From positions 1 through 64,000 of IMG/VR virus record IMGVR_UViG_3300032770_000005: a stretch of 64,000 bases of DNA; one strand, 5' to 3'. The number at the start of each line of letters is the position of its first letter. Within the stretch, counting starts at the first letter, position 1. The stretch comes from a virus. A program made the position numbers and the translations under genes. Positions 4,735-60,206 of the stretch are shown in pieces. The notes under the pieces were generated by a model that did no database searches, had not been told where the DNA came from, and saw only the letters and a list, made by a program, of their open reading frames with translations.

Positions 4735-5348
<614 letters not shown>

Positions 5349-5375
5349 CGACGCATCTCCGGCAGGACGAACGCG

Positions 5376-6611
5376 ATGTCTGAAGATCTGCTCGCCAAGT
5401 TCGAGGAGGCGCGATCGCGGCTCACGTTCGCACGACCGTACTTCACGGCCGCTGCGTACAAGCTGAAGCTGATCGTCACGCCCGAGGCTGCGAGCCTGCA
5501 CGTGGACACGTACGGCCGGCTGTACGCGGCGCCGGGCTGGCTCGCGCGGTACGACGTGGGCGTCGTCGCGACGGGCATCGCGCACGAGCTGCATCACATC
5601 CTGCGAGACCACGCGGGCCGCGGGAAGACCATCGGCGTAGTGCCGGCCACGCGGGCCGCATGGAACGAAGCATGCGACTGCGAGATCAACCCCGGCCTCA
5701 TGGACGACTGCGTCGGCCAGCAGCCCGTCCTGCCCGTGCTCCCGCCCGAGTGGTGTCTCCGGCCCGAGCAGTTCGGCATGGAGGTGGGGTCCGTCGCCGA
5801 GCGGTACTTCTCCGAGCGAGTGCGGCAGCGCGCGATGAGCATGGACCGTGGCGAAGAGCGCGGACGCACGGCGGACGGCTGCGGCTCCGGGGCCACCGGG
5901 GTCGAGGCGCCGTGGGAGGTCGCGCAGAGCGCGGCCGAGGGCCTTGATGACGCTCAGCTCTGGCAGCTGCGGCGCGACACTGCGCAGGCTGTGATCGAGC
6001 ACACTGCGCGAGGCTCTGTGCCCGGAAGCCTCGTCGACTGGGCAACGGACCTGCTGCGGCCGAAGCAAGTGCCGTGGGACCGGATGCTCGGATCGCTGAT
6101 GCGGCGTGGGGTCCAGCAGGGCGGCAGTGTGCTGCACTCTAGCTACTCGCGCCTCTCGCGGCGGCAAGACGTCTACGGCGAGCTGCTCATGCCGAGCTAC
6201 AGGCGGGTGTCGCCGACGATGGCGTTCGTCCGAGACACCTCGGAGAGCATGCAGCACGTCACCGCGCTCGTGCGTGGAGTGGTCGAGCAAGTCTGCGCCC
6301 ACACGGGCAGCGCGCTGACGCTCATCGACGTGGACGTGGAGGTTCAGGAGGTCCGGCAGGTCTCGTCTGGGCGCATCGCCGCTCACGGCGGCGGCGGGAC
6401 GGACATGCGCGTAGGCATCGAGCGAGCCTTCGCTCATCCTCGCCCGGTGGACGTCGCCATCGTGTGCACCGACTGCGACACGCCTTGGCCGGCGCGACGG
6501 CCTCGCGGTCACGTGATCGTAGCGGCTGTCGGAGCCGCGGATGCCTACCTCGACATGGTGCCGAGCTGGGCGCAGGTGGTGCGGGTCGAACAAGCAGGAG
6601 AAGCTCTGTGA
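5376..6611 (+). CDS. DUF2201-like metallopeptidase with C-terminal vWA domain (MoxR partner)
   Basis: HELHHIL (HExxH), WNEACDCEIN, MIDAS-like DTSESM, GGGGTDM, CTDCDTPWP. Confidence 0.85.
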   Translation: MSEDLLAKFEEARSRLTFARPYFTAAAYKLKLIVTPEAASLHVDTYGRLYAAPGWLARYDVGVVATGIAHELHHILRDHAGRGKTIGVVPATRAAWNEACDCEINPGLMDDCVGQQPVLPVLPPEWCLRPEQFGMEVGSVAERYFSERVRQRAMSMDRGEERGRTADGCGSGATGVEAPWEVAQSAAEGLDDAQLWQLRRDTAQAVIEHTARGSVPGSLVDWATDLLRPKQVPWDRMLGSLMRRGVQQGGSVLHSSYSRLSRRQDVYGELLMPSYRRVSPTMAFVRDTSESMQHVTALVRGVVEQVCAHTGSALTLIDVDVEVQEVRQVSSGRIAAHGGGGTDMRVGIERAFAHPRPVDVAIVCTDCDTPWPARRPRGHVIVAAVGAADAYLDMVPSWAQVVRVEQAGEAL

Positions 6612-8789: not shown

Positions 8790-10550
8790 ATGGGCACGCG
8801 AGCGTACAAGTACGTCATCCGGGCTCCGGTCTCGAACCGAGAGCTGATCGTCGAGCAGATGAAGGCGGCCCACCACTACCGCAACAAGCTCGTCGAGATC
8901 GAACGCATGCGCCGTCAGGCGCAGAGGGCGCTGCTGTCGTCGGCCACGCCGGTCGCCGAGGCCGAAGCCTCGCTCGCTTCGATCCTCCACGACCTCGAAG
9001 AGGCCGTGAAGGAGATCAAGGCCTACAAGCAGAACAAGCGCGCCGGCAAGGTTCCCGAGGAACTGCGCACGAAGGTCAGCATGCTGCGCGTGCGTCGGAG
9101 GGACGCGCTCGTCGCTCATCGACAGGCGCGGCTCGCCAGCAAGGAGACGCAGAAGACGGAGGCCATGACGGTCGACGCGCTCGCGGCCGACCAGCGCAAG
9201 GCGGCGCGGGCCTCGTGCGGCGTCTACTGGGGCACGTACCTGCTGGTCGAGAGCGCCGACCAGCAAGCGCGCAAGGACACGCCCCTCTACGACGGCGGCG
9301 AGCCGAGCGATCCTCGGTTCACCCCCTGGACGGGCGAAGGTCAGATCGGCGTCCAGCTCCAGCACGGCATGAGCGTCGGCGAGCTGTACGAGCCCAACAC
9401 GCTCGTTCAGCTCATCCCGCACGAACGCATCACGGTGAAGGGCCCGGCCACGAGCAAGCGTGCCGCCCGTCGCCAGTACTGCCATCTGCGGATGCGCATC
9501 CAGAGCAACGAGGCGCGCGATCCGATCTGGGCCGAGTGGCCCATGGTCATGCACCGACCGCTGCCGCCCGACGGCCGCGTCAAGCGGGTCATCGTTCAAC
9601 GGCGGCGTGTCGGCGCACACGAGGAGTGGAGCGTCGTCTTCTCCTGCGAGGCCGACTACCGCCGCATCGACAACGCCCGTGACGGCGTCGTGGGGCTCGA
9701 CATCGGGTGGCGCATGCGGCCCGATGGTCAGATCCGAGTCGGCGCCTGGGCCGGCTCCGACGGGCAGCGGGGCGAGGTCCTGCTCCCGCCGCGGCTGATC
9801 ACGGCGATGAGCAAGCCCGACGAGCTGCGCTCGGTCCGCGACAAGGCGTTCGACCGCGCCCGGGCTGAGCTGAAGCAGTGGATTCAGCAGGCCCCCTACG
9901 TCCCCACCTGGATGCGCGAGCGAGCGCAGTGGGTCGATCGCTGGAAGTCGCCGGGGCGTCTCGCCGGCATCGTCAGGACCTGGGCCGGGCTGCGCTTCGA
10001 GGGTGACCGGGAGATCTACGACCGCATGGAGGCCTGGCGCTACCACGACTTCCACCTCTGGAACTGGGAGTGTCATCAGCGCGAGACGTCAAAGCGGTGG
10101 CTGAAAGACTTCTATCGCGTGGTCGCCCGCGACCTCGCCCGCCGCTACGAGCGGCTCGTGATCGAAGAGTTCGACCTGCGACCCCTGGCGCGTAGGCCCA
10201 TGGTCGAGGACCACGACCCTACGCACCGGCTCACCAACGCCACGCGCCACCTCGTGGCGCCCTCGATGCTGCGCGAGTGCGCGATGCAGGCGTTCTCCAC
10301 CGTCGAGCAGGTCGACGCGACCAACACGACCCGCGCCTGCCGTCACTGCGGCACGATCAACTCCTGGAACGCCGCCGAGGAGGTCACCCACCAGTGCGTC
10401 TCGTGCGGCGCCGTCTGGGACCAGGACGACAACGCGGCAGACAACATCCGCATGCGCTCGGGCACGGGCAAGGTCGTCGGAGGAGAGAGGCCGACAGAGC
10501 GAGGAGGAAGCTGGGCACGGCGCAAGGCTGCTGCCAAGAACGCTGCTTGA
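8790..10550 (+). CDS. cas12m: Cas12m-like (type V-M/V-U1) effector A, 586 aa
   Basis: N-terminal QMKAAHHYRNKLVEIER and GVYWGTY...WTGEGQIGVQLQ blocks; MHRPLP; RuvC-I GLDIGWR, RuvC-II LVIEEFD, zinc finger CRHC..CVSC, RuvC-III WDQDDNAA; 36-nt repeats start at its stop codon. Confidence 0.75.
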   Translation: MGTRAYKYVIRAPVSNRELIVEQMKAAHHYRNKLVEIERMRRQAQRALLSSATPVAEAEASLASILHDLEEAVKEIKAYKQNKRAGKVPEELRTKVSMLRVRRRDALVAHRQARLASKETQKTEAMTVDALAADQRKAARASCGVYWGTYLLVESADQQARKDTPLYDGGEPSDPRFTPWTGEGQIGVQLQHGMSVGELYEPNTLVQLIPHERITVKGPATSKRAARRQYCHLRMRIQSNEARDPIWAEWPMVMHRPLPPDGRVKRVIVQRRRVGAHEEWSVVFSCEADYRRIDNARDGVVGLDIGWRMRPDGQIRVGAWAGSDGQRGEVLLPPRLITAMSKPDELRSVRDKAFDRARAELKQWIQQAPYVPTWMRERAQWVDRWKSPGRLAGIVRTWAGLRFEGDREIYDRMEAWRYHDFHLWNWECHQRETSKRWLKDFYRVVARDLARRYERLVIEEFDLRPLARRPMVEDHDPTHRLTNATRHLVAPSMLRECAMQAFSTVEQVDATNTTRACRHCGTINSWNAAEEVTHQCVSCGAVWDQDDNAADNIRMRSGTGKVVGGERPTERGGSWARRKAAAKNAA

Positions 10551-11246
10551 TCAAAGAGGCTGCGCGGCGCCTTGAAGACCGCGAACACGGAGAAGGAAGG
10601 TGCCCCGATGAACGCGAAGAGTGAGACCGACACCTATGTCTACGTGGCCGGAGCGTCGGCGGAGATCGAGCGAGCCGAGCGGATGATCGCGATCGTGCGC
10701 AGCTTCGCGAAGATCGCGTACGACTGGACGGCGGCGATGCGCCGGCACGGCCCCGACTGGGCGCTGCCGATCGACGTGCTGCGAGGGGAGTTGCAGCGCA
10801 ACCTCGACGCCGTGGACTCGTGCGAGGCGCTGCTCGTGCTCGTGCCGGCGCAGCCGATCCAGACGCATGGCGCGTGGTGGGAGTGCAGCCGAGCGAAGGC
10901 GTGGAACGACCTGATCGCCGGTCCGAGCACAGCGCACGGCCCCGGCGACCCAGGCCAGCCACGCAAGTTCATCCTGGTCTCGCTACCGAACGACAAGACG
11001 CCCTGCCCGGTCTGGCTTCAGTGCTTCGCAGATCACGTGGAGGTTTCGGACGAACTGGCGGCCGCCTATCTGCGCGGCGTGGTGGAGCAACGAAGGGCCA
11101 TCGCCCGATAGCGCGAAGCGCGAGGTAGAGAGGCTGCGCGGCGCCTTGAAGACCGCGACTCATTGTTTGCGTCCTTGAAGCACGGGCCCGCGTGTGCGAA
11201 CGTTTGGGCACGCAGAGAGGCTGCGCGGCGCCTTGAAGACCGCGAC
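10551..11246 (+). CRISPR. mini-array of repeat family A: 3 repeats, one 51-nt spacer and one gene-sized interval
   Basis: Identical 30-nt core AGAGGCTGCGCGGCGCCTTGAAGACCGCGA at 10555-10584 and within the 36-mers 11124-11159 and 11211-11246. Confidence 0.75.
10608..11111 (+). CDS. nucleoside 2-deoxyribosyltransferase/nucleotide N-hydrolase-like protein, lying between CRISPR repeats
   Basis: YVAG...YDWT...LDAVDSCEALLVL...GAWWE pattern; AAGGAAGG RBS. Confidence 0.6.
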   Translation: MNAKSETDTYVYVAGASAEIERAERMIAIVRSFAKIAYDWTAAMRRHGPDWALPIDVLRGELQRNLDAVDSCEALLVLVPAQPIQTHGAWWECSRAKAWNDLIAGPSTAHGPGDPGQPRKFILVSLPNDKTPCPVWLQCFADHVEVSDELAAAYLRGVVEQRRAIAR

Positions 11247-36857: not shown

Positions 36858-37898
36858 GGCGCGAGGCCAGTGCGGGGGCTTCGTGCCTGCGACTACTGCG
36901 CCGCATGCCGCGCTGTGGTCCCAGCCGCCGCCGAGCGAGCCAGTGCGGGGGCCTCATGCCCGCGACATGCCAGCGCAGTGGCTTGGTGCCTGCGACGCTT
37001 GTCTCCTCGGCCGTCGGTGCCGTCAGTCGCGAGGCCAGCGCAGGGGCCTGATGCCTGCGGCCGTGTTGCGAAGCCTGCGCAGAGCCGAGTGCCTGCGACT
37101 GGCGCGTGACGAGATCGGCTCTACCTTAGGCGGTAAGCCGCGAGGCCGGCGCGGGGGCTTGGTGCTCGCGACGTGCGGTCCGAGCACGCACCGGCAACGC
37201 CTGTGTTTGCAGGGCCAGCGCGGGGGCCGAGTGCCCGCGACCCCACTTCTGCGATCCTTCGAGGCCAGCGCGAGGGCATCGTGCTCGCGACCGCGGATCC
37301 GTGCTCGCGACCGCGGATCGCGGTGAGGATCAACGAGCCCGGCCGCAGGGGGCATCGTGCCGTCGCGAAGCCAGCGCGGGGGCCGAGTGCTCGCGACGAG
37401 GTCGTGGGGTGCCCGTGCTCGTGGTCATGAAGCCAGGCCGGCGCGAGGGCTTAGTGCTTGCGACGAGAACTGTGAGCACCACGTCGGCTCAGCAGAAGGC
37501 CAGCGCGGGGGCCGTGTGCCTGCGACGGCGAGCCGGGCGCGCACCGACAGTGGACCGTCATCCGTCGCGAGAGGCCAGCGCGGGGGCCGAGTGCCCGCGA
37601 TTGTCTCGTCGCGGTCATGTTGTTGCGACGACATCATCGTTGCAGGGCCAGCGCGGGGGCCTGATGCCTGCGACTGGGCCGTTGCAGCGCGGTGCGAGTG
37701 CCTGTGTCGCGAGGCCAGCGCGAGGGCTTCGTGCTCGCGACGCAGGGTTCGCCTCCAGAAGCGCGCGGCGCGTGCTCCTCCTCGTCGCGAGGCCAGCGCA
37801 GGGGCCTGGTGCCTGCGACTGGAGATCTGCCATTGTCGTTGCCGGCGCCGTCGATGAGGCCGGAAATCACGCCAGCGCGAGGGTCTCGTGCTCGCGAC
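36858..37898 (+). CRISPR. orphan array of repeat family B, about 16 heterogeneous repeats
   Basis: Repeat 3' ends at 36893, 36966, 36996, 37061, 37099, 37172, 37241, 37291, 37397, 37464, 37526, 37601, 37674, 37741, 37819 and 37898; core GCCAGCGC(G/A)(G/A)GGGCNNN(G/A)TGC(C/T)(C/T)GCGAC. Confidence 0.88.
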
Positions 37899-39205: not shown

Positions 39206-40118
39206 CCGACATGCCTGCGCAGGGCCTCGTGCCTGCGACGCACAGCGCCGTGCATCGGCCTCAATCGCGAGGCCAGCGCGAGGGCCTCATGCTCGCGACG
39301 ACCCACGCGTGCTCTACAGGCAGGGGCCGAGGCCTGCGACCAAGAAAAGCGAGGCGCATCCGAAAGTCTGTCCGCATGCAGAAGTCTGTCCGCATGCAGA
39401 AGTCCGTCCGCAGATCGGCAGTCGCCAGGCCAGCGCGGGGGCTTCGTGCCTGCGACTTGCAGTGGGAGATCATGTCCGCCGTTGCATGCCAGCGCAGGGG
39501 CTACCTGCCTGCGACGCCCAGGCTCCGCGCGTGTTTGAGGCCAGCACGAGGGCCTCGTGCTCGTGACTCCCGTGCGGCCAGTTCTTGCTCGCTCGCGAAC
39601 CGTCCGCTTGACGACGGACGCCCCAAGGCCAGCGCGGGGGCCGAGTGCCTGCGACTTGCAGTGTGAGCAGTGTGAGATCAGATGGCGGCGCGCATGTAGA
39701 GAGCGTGGCGGCAAACACGGCCGGCGAGGCCGGCCCGTGACCGAGCGAGCGGCAGCGAACGGTAGCTCATTGCATCTTCTTCCGGGGACGATGGGTGGCC
39801 GCGCTGTCGTGGCTGCGACGGAGTTGCTGCTCCGTGGTAGTCCGGCGAGATCACGGGTCGGCCTCACCGACCGACTGCCGATCCTGCGACGCAGATCTGA
39901 GAACGACGCGCATCACGCCAGCGCGAGGGCCGCATGCTCGCGACAAGCGCTCGAACTCTACTAAGCCAGCGCAGGGGCCGCATGCCTGCGACGAGCACGC
40001 TCGCGATGACGCTCGCCGTCGCTCGGCTCGAAAGGCCATCGCGGGGCATCGTGCCCGCGACATGTGGACGGACGAGTTTCTTTTACAAGGCCAGCGCAGG
40101 GGCCCGTGTACCTGCGAC
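39205..40118 (+). CRISPR. orphan array of repeat family B, about 11 clear repeats plus eroded remnants
   Basis: Repeat 3' ends at 39239, 39299, 39340, 39456, 39515, 39567, 39655, 39944, 39992, 40061 and 40118. Confidence 0.82.
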
Positions 40119-56921: not shown

Positions 56922-57352
56922 TGAACGCGCCCGACATGACGTCCCTCTCGCGCCGAGATCGCGCCGCCATCTTGCTGGCGTTGACGTGGATTCGCGTCAC
57001 GCCTGGTCGCGGTGGCGGTCCGCTGCTGGCGCGGGAGCAGGCGTGCGAAGCGCTGCGGATGGGAGGCAAGGGGGCGAAGGCGATCGCTGAGGCCGTGGCC
57101 AGCGCGAACTCGGAACTGGCGTCCGAGATGGCACGCAACGGCGACTTGTCATCGGAGGCACGCTATCTGGACGTGCTCGCCACGAACCGGCGGCTGGTCC
57201 GCGCCCGCCTCGCGCTCTTCCTGCGGACCGTCGTGCGCGTTGACGACGACGATTACGGATGTTGGGACGGAGACCGCGGTGGATGGTTGCCGCGGCCGTA
57301 TCATGCTCTCTGGGAATCCGCACCACCGCATCGAAAGAAGGTCAGCCAATGA
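56921..57352 (+). CDS. hypothetical protein translationally coupled to Cas12m-like effector B
   Basis: TGATG start; ATGA overlap with 57349. Confidence 0.6.
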   Translation: MNAPDMTSLSRRDRAAILLALTWIRVTPGRGGGPLLAREQACEALRMGGKGAKAIAEAVASANSELASEMARNGDLSSEARYLDVLATNRRLVRARLALFLRTVVRVDDDDYGCWDGDRGGWLPRPYHALWESAPPHRKKVSQ

Positions 57353-59214
57353 GCGTCAAGGTCTATCGCTATGGTTTGGGCGCACCGGTCGAGAACGAAG
57401 CGTTGGTGCGGGCGCAGCTGCGTGCGGCGCATCACTACCGCAACGCGCTCGTCGAGGTCGAGCGGTGGCGCCGCGCCGAGCACCGACGACTGCTCGGTGC
57501 GCATCCGGGCGTCGGGCCGGCGGAGGCCGCGGTGACGCTCGCCCATGCGGTGCTCGACGAGGCGTTGACCGCCGTCAAGCGCGTGAAGGGGGCGAGTCGC
57601 AGCGGTGCGGTGCCGTCGGAGTTGCGCGCTGCGCTCCATGTGGCGCGCTCCCGCAAGGCCGATGCCGTGCGAGCGTTCCGAGAGGCGCGAGCGGCGCTGC
57701 GCGGAGACGAAGCGCTGAACGCCGAGCGGGCGCGCGTCGACGAGACGGCTGCTCAGCGGCGGAAGGCCCTCCGAGCGTCCTGCGGCGTCTACTGGGGCAC
57801 GTACCTCGGGATCGAAGCGGCGGATGAGCAGTCGCGCAAGCAGCCGCTCTACGACGGCGCGGAGCCGCTCGACCCGCGGTTCATGCCGTGGACGGGCGAA
57901 GGACGTGTCGGCGTTCAGTTCCAGGGCGGCCTCGCGGTCGACCAGGTGGTGGACGACACGCGCATGAGGATCGAGGACGCGCAGCCGGTGCGCGTCTCAA
58001 AGCTCGGGCGCGTGCTGCCTCAGCGTGATCCGTCGAGCAAGCGATCCGCCCTCCGCCGCTACGCGACGCTCGCGCTGCGCGTCGGGTCCGACGACGATCG
58101 TGGGCCCGTGTGGGCTCGCTGGCCGCTCGTGCTGCACCGGCCGCTCCCCGAGGGCGGCGTCCTCAAGTGGGCACACGTCTCGCTCCGGCGGATCGGTCCG
58201 CGCGAGGAGTGGTCGCTGCTTTGCACCGTCGAGAGCGAGGACCGTCGCCCGCTGCCGCCGCTCGAAGCCGGAGCGGTCGCGGTCGATCTCGGGTGGCGGC
58301 AGATGGACGACGGCTCCGTGCGCGTCGCCTACTGGCTGGGCCAGGACGGGCAGGAGGGCGAACTGCGGCTCTCGCCGCGCGACCTCTCCGGGCTCTCGAA
58401 GGCGGACGAGGTGCGGGCTGTCCGCGACCGCGCCTTCGATGCCGCGCGCCGCGAGCTGCGTGAGTGGCTCGCCACGAACCCTGGTCGACCGTGGCTGAGG
58501 ACGAGGTGCGAGTGGATCGACCGGTGGAAGGCGCCGGGCCGGCTCGCCGCGACGGTCGTGCAGTGGCGCGCGGACGGCTTCCGCTTCGAGGGCGACAAGG
58601 AGATCTTCGTGAAGCTCGAAGCGTGGCGCAAGCAGGACAAGCACCTCTGGTGCTGGGAGACGTCGCAGCGCACGGGCGCGCTGCGAGCGAGGAAGGATCT
58701 GTACCGCCGCTTCGCGTGTGACCTGGCGCGTCGCTACCGCACGCTCGTGATCGAAGACTTCGACATGCGCGAGGTGTCGCGCCGACCTGCCGCGGACGAA
58801 GCGGCCGGCAACGCTGCCGCGCGGTCGATGAGGCAGCGGGCAGCGCCGAGCGAGGCTCGTCTCGCGCTCGTGCACGCGTTCCGCGACGTGTCGAAGCAGG
58901 ACCCCGCCGACACGACCCACGACTGCCACTCGTGCGGGTCGCGCGAGCAGTTCGATCAGGCGGCCGAGCTGGTCCATCGCTGCGGAGCGTGCGGCACCGA
59001 GTGGGACCAGGACCGGAACGCGGCTATCAACCTGATGCGTCGCGCGAGCGATGCCGGTGCTCTCGGAGAAGGCGGGGTCGCTCGCGAGCCGCGAGAGGCC
59101 AACGATTTCGAGGCGAAGCCCGCGGGCCGATGGGCGCGAGCGAAGGCGAAGAAGGCCGCTCGCATCGCGCAACAGGCGACCGCTCGCGAAGCGGCGCCCA
59201 GTGACGCGGAATGA
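57349..59214 (+). CDS. cas12m: Cas12m-like (type V-M/V-U1) effector B, 621 aa
   Basis: QLRAAHHYRNALVEVER, GVYWGTY, WTGEGRVGVQFQ, LHRPLP, RuvC-I AVDLGWR, RuvC-II LVIEDFD, CHSC..CGAC, RuvC-III WDQDRNAA; the array starts after a 19-nt gap. Confidence 0.82.
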   Translation: MSVKVYRYGLGAPVENEALVRAQLRAAHHYRNALVEVERWRRAEHRRLLGAHPGVGPAEAAVTLAHAVLDEALTAVKRVKGASRSGAVPSELRAALHVARSRKADAVRAFREARAALRGDEALNAERARVDETAAQRRKALRASCGVYWGTYLGIEAADEQSRKQPLYDGAEPLDPRFMPWTGEGRVGVQFQGGLAVDQVVDDTRMRIEDAQPVRVSKLGRVLPQRDPSSKRSALRRYATLALRVGSDDDRGPVWARWPLVLHRPLPEGGVLKWAHVSLRRIGPREEWSLLCTVESEDRRPLPPLEAGAVAVDLGWRQMDDGSVRVAYWLGQDGQEGELRLSPRDLSGLSKADEVRAVRDRAFDAARRELREWLATNPGRPWLRTRCEWIDRWKAPGRLAATVVQWRADGFRFEGDKEIFVKLEAWRKQDKHLWCWETSQRTGALRARKDLYRRFACDLARRYRTLVIEDFDMREVSRRPAADEAAGNAAARSMRQRAAPSEARLALVHAFRDVSKQDPADTTHDCHSCGSREQFDQAAELVHRCGACGTEWDQDRNAAINLMRRASDAGALGEGGVAREPREANDFEAKPAGRWARAKAKKAARIAQQATAREAAPSDAE

Positions 59215-59233
59215 TGGCGGATGCGAGCGGTCA

Positions 59234-60206
59234 GTTGCAGGGCCAGCGCGGGGGCCGAGTGCCTGCGACGCGTCCGCGAGCCCAACGACGCGATCCGCCT
59301 GCGCTGGCGTTGCAGGGCCAGCGCGGGGGCCGAGTGCCTGCGACGGGCGATCTCCGCGGCGTTCCGTCGCCGCTAAATCAGCGGGTTGCAGGGCCAGCGC
59401 GGGGGCCGAGTGCCTGCGACACGCCTGCGGACCTTCGAGTTCGGCTGCATGTCGCGAAGTTGCAGGGCCAGCGCGGGGGCCGAGTGCCTGCGACGTTGAG
59501 CAGATTGAAGGTGTTCACCCGCTTCGTCGCGGTTGCAGGGCCAGCGCGGGGGCCGAGTGCCTGCGACGTGGAGGCGGCGAAGACGAGCCGCCGGGGAATC
59601 TTTAGTTTGCAGGGCCAGCGCAGGGGCCTGGTGCTTGCGACTTCTGTCCGTGCTGCGGGCACAAGCCTGCGGAGTAGAGGTGCGAGGCCGGCGCGGGGGC
59701 CTGGTGCTCGCGACCCTCGGTAGCAATCGACCTTCGCGAGCGCGAGCGCCCAGTTGCATGGCCAGCGCGGGGGCCGAGTGCCCGCGACACCTCGGTGATG
59801 TAGCGCTTAGCGCCCGCGTCGCAGGGCCAGCGCGGGGGCCGAGTACCTGCGACCTCTCCAACTGCTCTTGCTCGGTCACGGTGATCTCCTGTTGCAGGGC
59901 CAGCGCGGGGGCCGTGTGCCTGCGACAAACCCCGCGTCGATGAGATCGTACTCGCCCACTCCGGTCGCGAAGCCAGCGCAGGGGCTTTGTGCCTGCGACG
60001 CCAGGCTCGCGAAGGTTGGGCGTGTCGATAGGCCGGCGCGGGGGCCTTGTGCCTGCGACCGTAGGTAGTCCTTCGTGACGCCCAGCATCTGGGCGACGTT
60101 GCAGGGCCAGCGCGAGGGCTTGGTGCTCGCGACAGCCGCTTCACGATCTCGAAGACCCTCTTCTCGTTGTGTGGCGAGGCCTGCGCAGGGGCCTTGTGCC
60201 TGCGAC
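59234..60206 (+). CRISPR. CRISPR array of repeat family B: 14 repeats, 13 spacers (24-40 nt)
   Basis: GTTGCAGGGCCAGCGCGGGGGCCGAGTGCCTGCGAC exact at 59234, 59309, 59385, 59459 and 59532; variants at 59605, 59679, 59753, 59818, 59891, 59964, 60024, 60098 and 60171. Confidence 0.97.

Follow-up and report, generated by a model that had tools for sequence, protein, structure and literature searches.

Two Cas12m paralogs with complete D-E-D triads in a bacterial virus: probable RNA-guided DNA-binding silencers

Two cas12m genes and their repeats in one viral genome

The window analysed here covers the first 64 kb (64,000 nucleotides) of one virus record, IMGVR_UViG_3300032770_000005, which is 152,857 bp long and has a CheckV completeness of 100%. 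This 153-kb bacterial virus encodes two Cas12m paralogs, A and B. The gene for B (cas12m-B, 57349..59214, + strand) translates to a type V-M effector of 621 residues with the triad D313/E469/D555. The triad codons, all on the + strand, are those of the RuvC-I residue Asp313 in the motif AVDLGWR (58285..58287), the RuvC-II residue Glu469 in LVIEDFD (58753..58755) and the RuvC-III residue Asp555 in WDQDRNAA (59011..59013). The TNB zinc finger of B, CHSC...CGAC (C526, C529, C545 and C548; 58924..58992, + strand), matches the Pfam family PF07282 (Cas12f1-like_TNB) with an E-value of 2.2e-9. The ATG at 57349 overlaps the stop codon of the upstream open reading frame (ATGA), is preceded by a purine-rich, AAGAAGG-like ribosome site and gives an N-terminus that fits the family consensus (xVYRYGL). 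On these three features 57349 is the correct start; a longer reading frame from 57259 was not needed and was rejected.

The gene for A (cas12m-A, 8790..10550, + strand) translates to a 586-residue paralog with 46% identity to B and the triad D304/E459/D546. Sequence alignment places its RuvC-I Asp304 codon (GLDIGWR) at 9699..9701, the RuvC-II Glu459 codon (LVIEEFD) at 10164..10166 and the RuvC-III Asp546 codon (WDQDDNAA) at 10425..10427, again all on the + strand. Its TNB zinc finger, CRHC...CVSC (C517, C520, C536 and C539; 10338..10406, + strand), matches PF07282 with an E-value of 3.9e-9. The RuvC motifs that a first-pass annotation of the DNA had quoted for the two proteins, and the four-Cys zinc finger that it had noted in each, are all present in these translations.

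Each gene is followed by CRISPR repeats, and the two sets belong to different repeat families. The array of B (59234..60206, + strand) begins 20 nt past the B stop codon and contains 14 repeats of 36 nt, which degenerate with distance from cas12m-B. Downstream of cas12m-A there are three family-A repeats (10553-10585, 11127-11159 and 11214-11246, spanning 10553..11246 on the + strand). The first lies directly behind the gene and is followed by an open reading frame of 167 residues (10608-11111), and the last two flank a single 54-nt spacer. Minimum free energy folds of both consensus repeats were no better than those of shuffled sequences (z -0.4 to -0.5). Cas12m repeats form a pseudoknot, so this result says little.

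A profile search of the whole 152,857-bp genome found no Cas1 (PF01867), with control genomes scoring positive, and no partner nuclease or cas gene was recognised near A or B, the ten neighbouring open reading frames giving no Pfam match. Self-targeting was examined by comparing 68 candidate guides, defined as the 36-nt stretch following each A- or B-family repeat, with the whole genome. Searches with blastn-short gave only repeat-derived or chance-level matches for these guides, and a search with the first 18 nt of each, allowing up to two mismatches, gave one match in the genome, about the number expected by chance. A match would have favoured a non-cutting effector, and the search as performed is neutral evidence. 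That the 68 guides include no self-targeting spacer that would have demanded a non-cutting effector is an observation on the side opposed to silencing.

Family, fold and the acidic positions

Both proteins match the PADLOC profile for Cas12u1 (equivalent to V-M), A over residues 4-553 (E 1.2e-97) and B at full length, over residues 1-567 (E 6.5e-100). PDB Cas12m chains are matched with E-values of 1e-67 to 1e-22, the best being entry 23vw (E 1.5e-67 for B and 1.1e-66 for A), which was deposited as 'CRISPR-associated DNA-binding protein Cas12m'. A structure model was made for B, to which A is related by its 46% identity and the same motifs. The AlphaFold (AF2) model has a pLDDT of 92.1 and a pTM of 0.86, and has four long helices at residues 17-144. 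Foldseek aligned it over about 610 columns with Cas12m2 8hhl (TM 0.77/0.80) and with 8pm4 (TM 0.76/0.78); against TnpB the TM values were 0.38/0.61, with 0.38 on the query. The modelled B has the bilobed architecture of Cas12m, with WED, REC1, a coiled-coil REC2 insertion, RuvC and the TNB zinc finger, and the lengths of both effectors fall in the range of about 540-630 residues expected for the type. The NCBIfam guided_TnpB profile gave 33 and 38.3 bits for the two effectors, against a cut-off of 100, and matched the C-terminal 120 residues only. Size, fold, profile score and CRISPR linkage all speak against an identity as TnpB, which was rejected. The description of both proteins as Cas12m-like is borne out by the full-length Cas12u1 matches, the PDB Cas12m matches and, for B, the whole-length fold match. 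A and B are type V-M (V-U1) Cas12m effectors and add two viral members to the D-E-D group of Cas12m that is already known.

To align the two proteins with characterised Cas12m and TnpB had been proposed as a check, and the alignments identify the acidic residues as the true catalytic positions. In the phmmer alignment of B with Cas12m2 (PDB 8HIO), D313, E469 and D555 stand opposite H317, D485 and D579, the published RuvC active-site residues of MmCas12m2 (PMC10442227; PMC11013384), the Cas12m2 residue numbers having been assigned by manual counting with reference to Table S2 of PMC11013384. MsCas12m, fetched from plasmid NC_014214.1, has its motifs at D274 and D518 as published, and its D274/E429/D518 fall in the same alignment columns as the triads of A and B. 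The chain 23vw reads D316/E469/D560 opposite both triads. These numbers equal those of TfCas12m (D306/E459/D550) plus 10, and the chain lengths are 577 and 567 residues, from which we infer that 23vw is TfCas12m carrying a 10-residue tag. UnCas12m4a is also D-E-D in the alignment, and Bosea TnpB has D, E and D in the triad columns of A and B. In the model of B, D313 lies on the β-strand 309-318, E469 ends the strand 465-469 and D555 starts the helix 554-568, so that the modelled placement of the triad is that of the RNase-H/RuvC topology. The claim that both effectors keep a complete D-E-D triad is therefore upheld, as these residues align with the active-site positions of MmCas12m2, MsCas12m and 23vw, and so is its caveat that having all three residues is no proof of cleavage.

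Relatives and the loss of triad residues

The best 120 database relatives of B share 37-52% identity with it. Among the 116 that were aligned, 97 are D-E-D, and the remainder have N, H or G at RuvC-I and/or D, P, H, A, G or T at RuvC-II. D-E-D Cas12m is common in viruses: a scan of IMG/VR found relatives on 69 viral contigs, 55 of 67 being D-E-D, a count biased at the RuvC-III position only because the RuvC-III motif was required. A single-protein scan of a genome collection matched only one deltaproteobacterial MAG. About 85% of relatives with 25-50% identity keep the RuvC-I Asp and the RuvC-II Glu, compared with a mean column identity of 25%, and the zinc-finger Cys columns are conserved in 159-183 of 183 sequences.

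An approximate-likelihood tree of 171 non-identical sequences was built with FastTree and rooted on one TnpB, from a Bosea plasmid; ApCas12m lies outside this tree, and TfCas12m is represented solely through the PDB alignment. A and B group together as sister paralogs (support 0.98) inside a clade of 30 members, deep in the crown, in which 29 are D-E-D. The NDD lineage (Mk, Pp), the tested DED lineage (Ms, Un) and the mycobacterial HDD lineage split off below this clade, with supports of 0.87-0.95. Because these lineages diverge earlier, A and B are not early-branching, and the first-pass annotation's placement of them between TnpB and the silencing Cas12m proteins finds no support. On this tree, experimentally non-cutting lineages bracket A and B. 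Ms and Un, the D-E-D proteins of the tree that have been assayed, are only 31-37% identical to A and B, and neither falls within the immediate clade.

By parsimony over the 171 tips, the RuvC-I Asp has been lost independently at least 16 times, usually to N or H, and the RuvC-II Glu at least 15 times. The RuvC-III Asp shows no losses and is invariant in all 183 aligned relatives. One N-E-D relative (P0007), 50% identical to B, has an adjacent CRISPR array with a family-A-like repeat. Judged from these sequences, catalysis is dispensable in the Cas12m family, given the many RuvC-I and RuvC-II losses and the array linkage of P0007, and the combination of an invariant RuvC-III with repeated loss of RuvC-I and RuvC-II points to a metal-mediated role in strand binding.

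Published assays and the probable role of the triad

The best-characterised Cas12m is as the annotation describes it: MmCas12m2 is H-D-D, substituted in both RuvC-I and RuvC-II, and does not cut (PMC10442227). As cited in that paper, Wu 2022 divided Cas12m into four clades, of which clade 3 (DED, NED) and clade 4 (DED, DND, NED) keep the canonical triad. Omura 2023 (PMC10442227) suggested that proteins of the DED clades 3 and 4 might be able to hydrolyse DNA. In the same study, changing the HDD triad of MmCas12m2 to DED did not restore cutting. Bigelyte 2024 (PMC11013384) tested eight Cas12m proteins, including four with D-E-D (Ms, Ap, Un and Tf). None of these four produced dsDNA breaks in a PAM-library capture assay, and purified MsCas12m left target DNA and RNA uncut and lacked collateral DNase and RNase activity. 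PAM-dependent DNA binding was reported to be conserved across the Cas12m effectors tested (PMC11013384). A protein in our IMG/VR set (L022) has the length (583 residues), triad numbering (D304/E457/D548) and N-terminal string of UnCas12m, so a virus-borne D-E-D Cas12m has already been assayed. The nuclease hypothesis had therefore been posed by Omura 2023 and answered in the negative for four members by Bigelyte 2024 before it was raised for the present sequence.

We consider that A and B are probably RNA-guided DNA-binding silencers (a probability of roughly 0.7), whose RuvC pocket would clamp the non-target strand in a metal-dependent manner. Each effector would load crRNAs processed from the repeats of its own family, recognise a PAM-flanked dsDNA target, form an R-loop and stay bound, so blocking transcription or replication of the target instead of cutting it. 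The D-E-D residues are a state inherited from TnpB, and the triad would form a pocket that depends on magnesium, keeps hold of the displaced non-target strand and locks the R-loop in place. In Cas12m2, His317 and Asp579 coordinate a single Mg ion on a non-target-strand phosphate, making the site a DNA-binding pocket, and alanine substitution of D485 reduces both binding and silencing (PMC10442227). The pattern of loss among the relatives fits such a pocket and not obligatory two-metal catalysis, since the RuvC-III Asp is invariant and the RuvC-I Asp has repeatedly become N or H in array-linked genes. Several points weigh against silencing. The triad is preserved in all but one of the 30 members of the immediate clade, which indicates selection for something, and a role in binding is not the sole possible reason. 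A complete D-E-D site could in principle accommodate both metal ions. The D-E-D proteins assayed so far share only 31-37% identity with A and B and fall outside that clade, two of the proteins tested derive from thermophiles, and the buffers of the purified-protein assays are specified at 37 °C.

The first-pass annotation read both effectors as possibly nuclease-active. On such a reading A and/or B would be true RNA-guided DNA nucleases or nickases, with an intact two-metal RuvC site cleaving the displaced DNA strand in competing phages, plasmids or the host. Acidic residues occupy all the catalytic positions beside an intact zinc finger, the triad persists in 29 of 30 members of the immediate clade and in both paralogs despite their 46% identity, hydrolysis has been proposed for the DED clades, and cutting would not be suicidal, as no self-targeting spacers were found among the 68 guides in the whole genome. 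Against this, none of the four D-E-D proteins assayed cuts dsDNA, MsCas12m lacks both cis and trans activity, MmCas12m2 stays inactive when given the DED triad, N or H stands at RuvC-I in close relatives that are linked to CRISPR arrays, and the deposited title of 23vw, the nearest solved structure, names a DNA-binding protein. DNA cutting by A or B is consequently unlikely, and the suggestion that they are candidate compact editors is likewise unsupported, as their D-E-D relatives bind without cutting. Were it true, A and/or B would be the first type V-M enzymes to cut or nick DNA, overturning the binding-only view, and would offer self-processing, tracrRNA-free editors of about 600 residues that use a single crRNA, as two paralogs with different repeat families.

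It is also quite improbable that the triad is kept for cutting RNA, whether pre-crRNA or the virus's own mRNAs at scattered repeats, while DNA is only bound. Cas12c and Cas12j do use their RuvC site for pre-crRNA processing (PMC10442227), and heavy RNA processing would be expected here because B-family repeats number 65 in this genome and occur at many loci, in many cases behind co-oriented genes. However, MsCas12m D274A still processes pre-crRNA and processing by MmCas12m is reported to be RuvC-independent (PMC11013384), and relatives with N or H at RuvC-I retain their arrays. Least probable of all is a triad without present function, an ancestral TnpB state not yet eroded: the many independent losses would suit it, but retention of about 85% at RuvC-I and RuvC-II and of 100% at RuvC-III far exceeds neutral decay, and the D485 alanine substitution in Cas12m2 has a measurable cost to binding and silencing (PMC10442227).

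Among known systems, A and B stand closest to the D-E-D Cas12m proteins already assayed (Tf, Ms, Un and Ap; PMC11013384). They have in common the family, domain order, triad, C4 zinc finger, GW motif after RuvC-I and an adjacent CRISPR array; those systems have no adaptation genes, and the genome of A and B is likewise without Cas1. UnCas12m shares with them an origin on a viral contig. A and B differ from the tested proteins in belonging to another, more crown-ward subclade, and in being two paralogs with different repeat families in one virus. They form a natural diverged Cas12m pair that could provide two possibly orthogonal compact DNA-binding platforms.

MmCas12m2 and GoCas12m (8HHL, 8HIO and 8PM4; PMC10442227) share the whole-length fold of B (TM 0.76-0.80). 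Their coiled-coil REC2 insertion is matched by the four long N-terminal helices of B, and their RuvC-III Asp and zinc finger are conserved in both viral proteins. The Arg-rich REC helix of MmCas12m2 is partly conserved: in the sequence alignment B R111 stands opposite Mm R112, whereas Mm R111 and R126 have no residue-for-residue match in B. Identity is only about 24-28%, and where MmCas12m2 and GoCas12m have His at RuvC-I and Asp at RuvC-II, A and B have Asp and Glu. TnpB (ISDra2, PDB 8H1J/8EXA; Bosea) has the RuvC D-E-D columns and the TNB zinc ribbon in common with A and B, but the viral effectors are about 200 residues larger, contain the REC2 insertion and are linked to CRISPR arrays. Other virus-borne Cas12m proteins, found in virus Rctr197k (KX853510), in myxophage MV-1 (MvCas12m; bioRxiv 10.64898/2026.09.14.751636) and on the 69 IMG/VR contigs, are 33-46% identical to A and B and resemble them in setting: large phage genomes that lack cas1, cas2 and cas4 and encode a D-E-D effector beside a CRISPR array.

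Conserved positions around the RuvC motifs

Several residues of effector B in and beside its RuvC-I and RuvC-III motifs are strongly conserved across the full alignment of 183 relatives. Within G315-W316-R317 (window 58291-58299), G315 occurs without exception, whereas W316 and R317 are each kept in 174-177 of the 183 sequences; within D553-Q554-D555 (window 59005-59013), the two aspartates D553 and D555 show little or no variation. Since conservation of G315, W316, R317, D553 and D555 persists in members that lack the RuvC-I and RuvC-II acids, these positions probably serve structural or nucleic-acid-contacting roles rather than catalytic ones.

The C-terminal tail and its second copy

Effector B ends in a tail of approximately 60 residues (562-621; window 59032-59211), a form of tail that effector A, its 586-residue paralog, does not have. 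Predicted confidence (pLDDT) is low at residues 581-589, which are followed by a basic helix at 594-614 (RWARAKAKKAARIAQQ). This tail is the portion of the protein that is present again in a duplicate at 107 kb.

The duplicate, on the minus strand at G000:C1:107174-107398 (locus L082 of the whole virus record, outside the window), has 83% identity to window 59044-59269, which comprises the final ~170 nt of cas12m-B and the first repeat. It heads the largest B-family array of the genome (105824-107209), and its reading frame is disrupted, being split over two frames. The copy looks like either what is left of the 3' end of a third gene resembling cas12m-B or a unit of effector tail plus array that recombination has duplicated.

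Distribution of the two repeat families

Counted at up to 11 mismatches over the whole genome, the B-family repeat is present in 65 copies at many loci and on both strands, those within the window lying at 36858-37819, 39264-39992 and 59234-60206. The family-A repeat was found in only three copies in the whole genome, every one behind effector A. Beyond the window and far from effector A, the two families abut on the minus strand at ~100450-100525: a gap of 16 nt separates a B-family repeat from the 20 nt that come after it, and these match the beginning of the family-A repeat exactly.

Relatives on other loci and phages

P0007, a CRISPR-linked N-E-D relative with 50% identity to effector B, is encoded at L006:791-2605 with a 10-repeat array upstream (L006:1-621), whose repeats (GCTGCGCGGCGCC...GCGAC) resemble family A, not family B. 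A D-E-D Cas12m homolog is also carried by the 197-kb phage Rctr197k (GenBank KX853510.1; 2953-4821), where it adjoins an annotated 1.5-kb CRISPR (4855-6369) and is itself annotated merely as "similar to transposase". A 2026 preprint describes the myxophage MV-1 as having the first phage-encoded Cas12m (bioRxiv 10.64898/2026.09.14.751636); this claim conflicts with Rctr197k, with UnCas12m (IMG/VR) and with 69 IMG/VR contigs.
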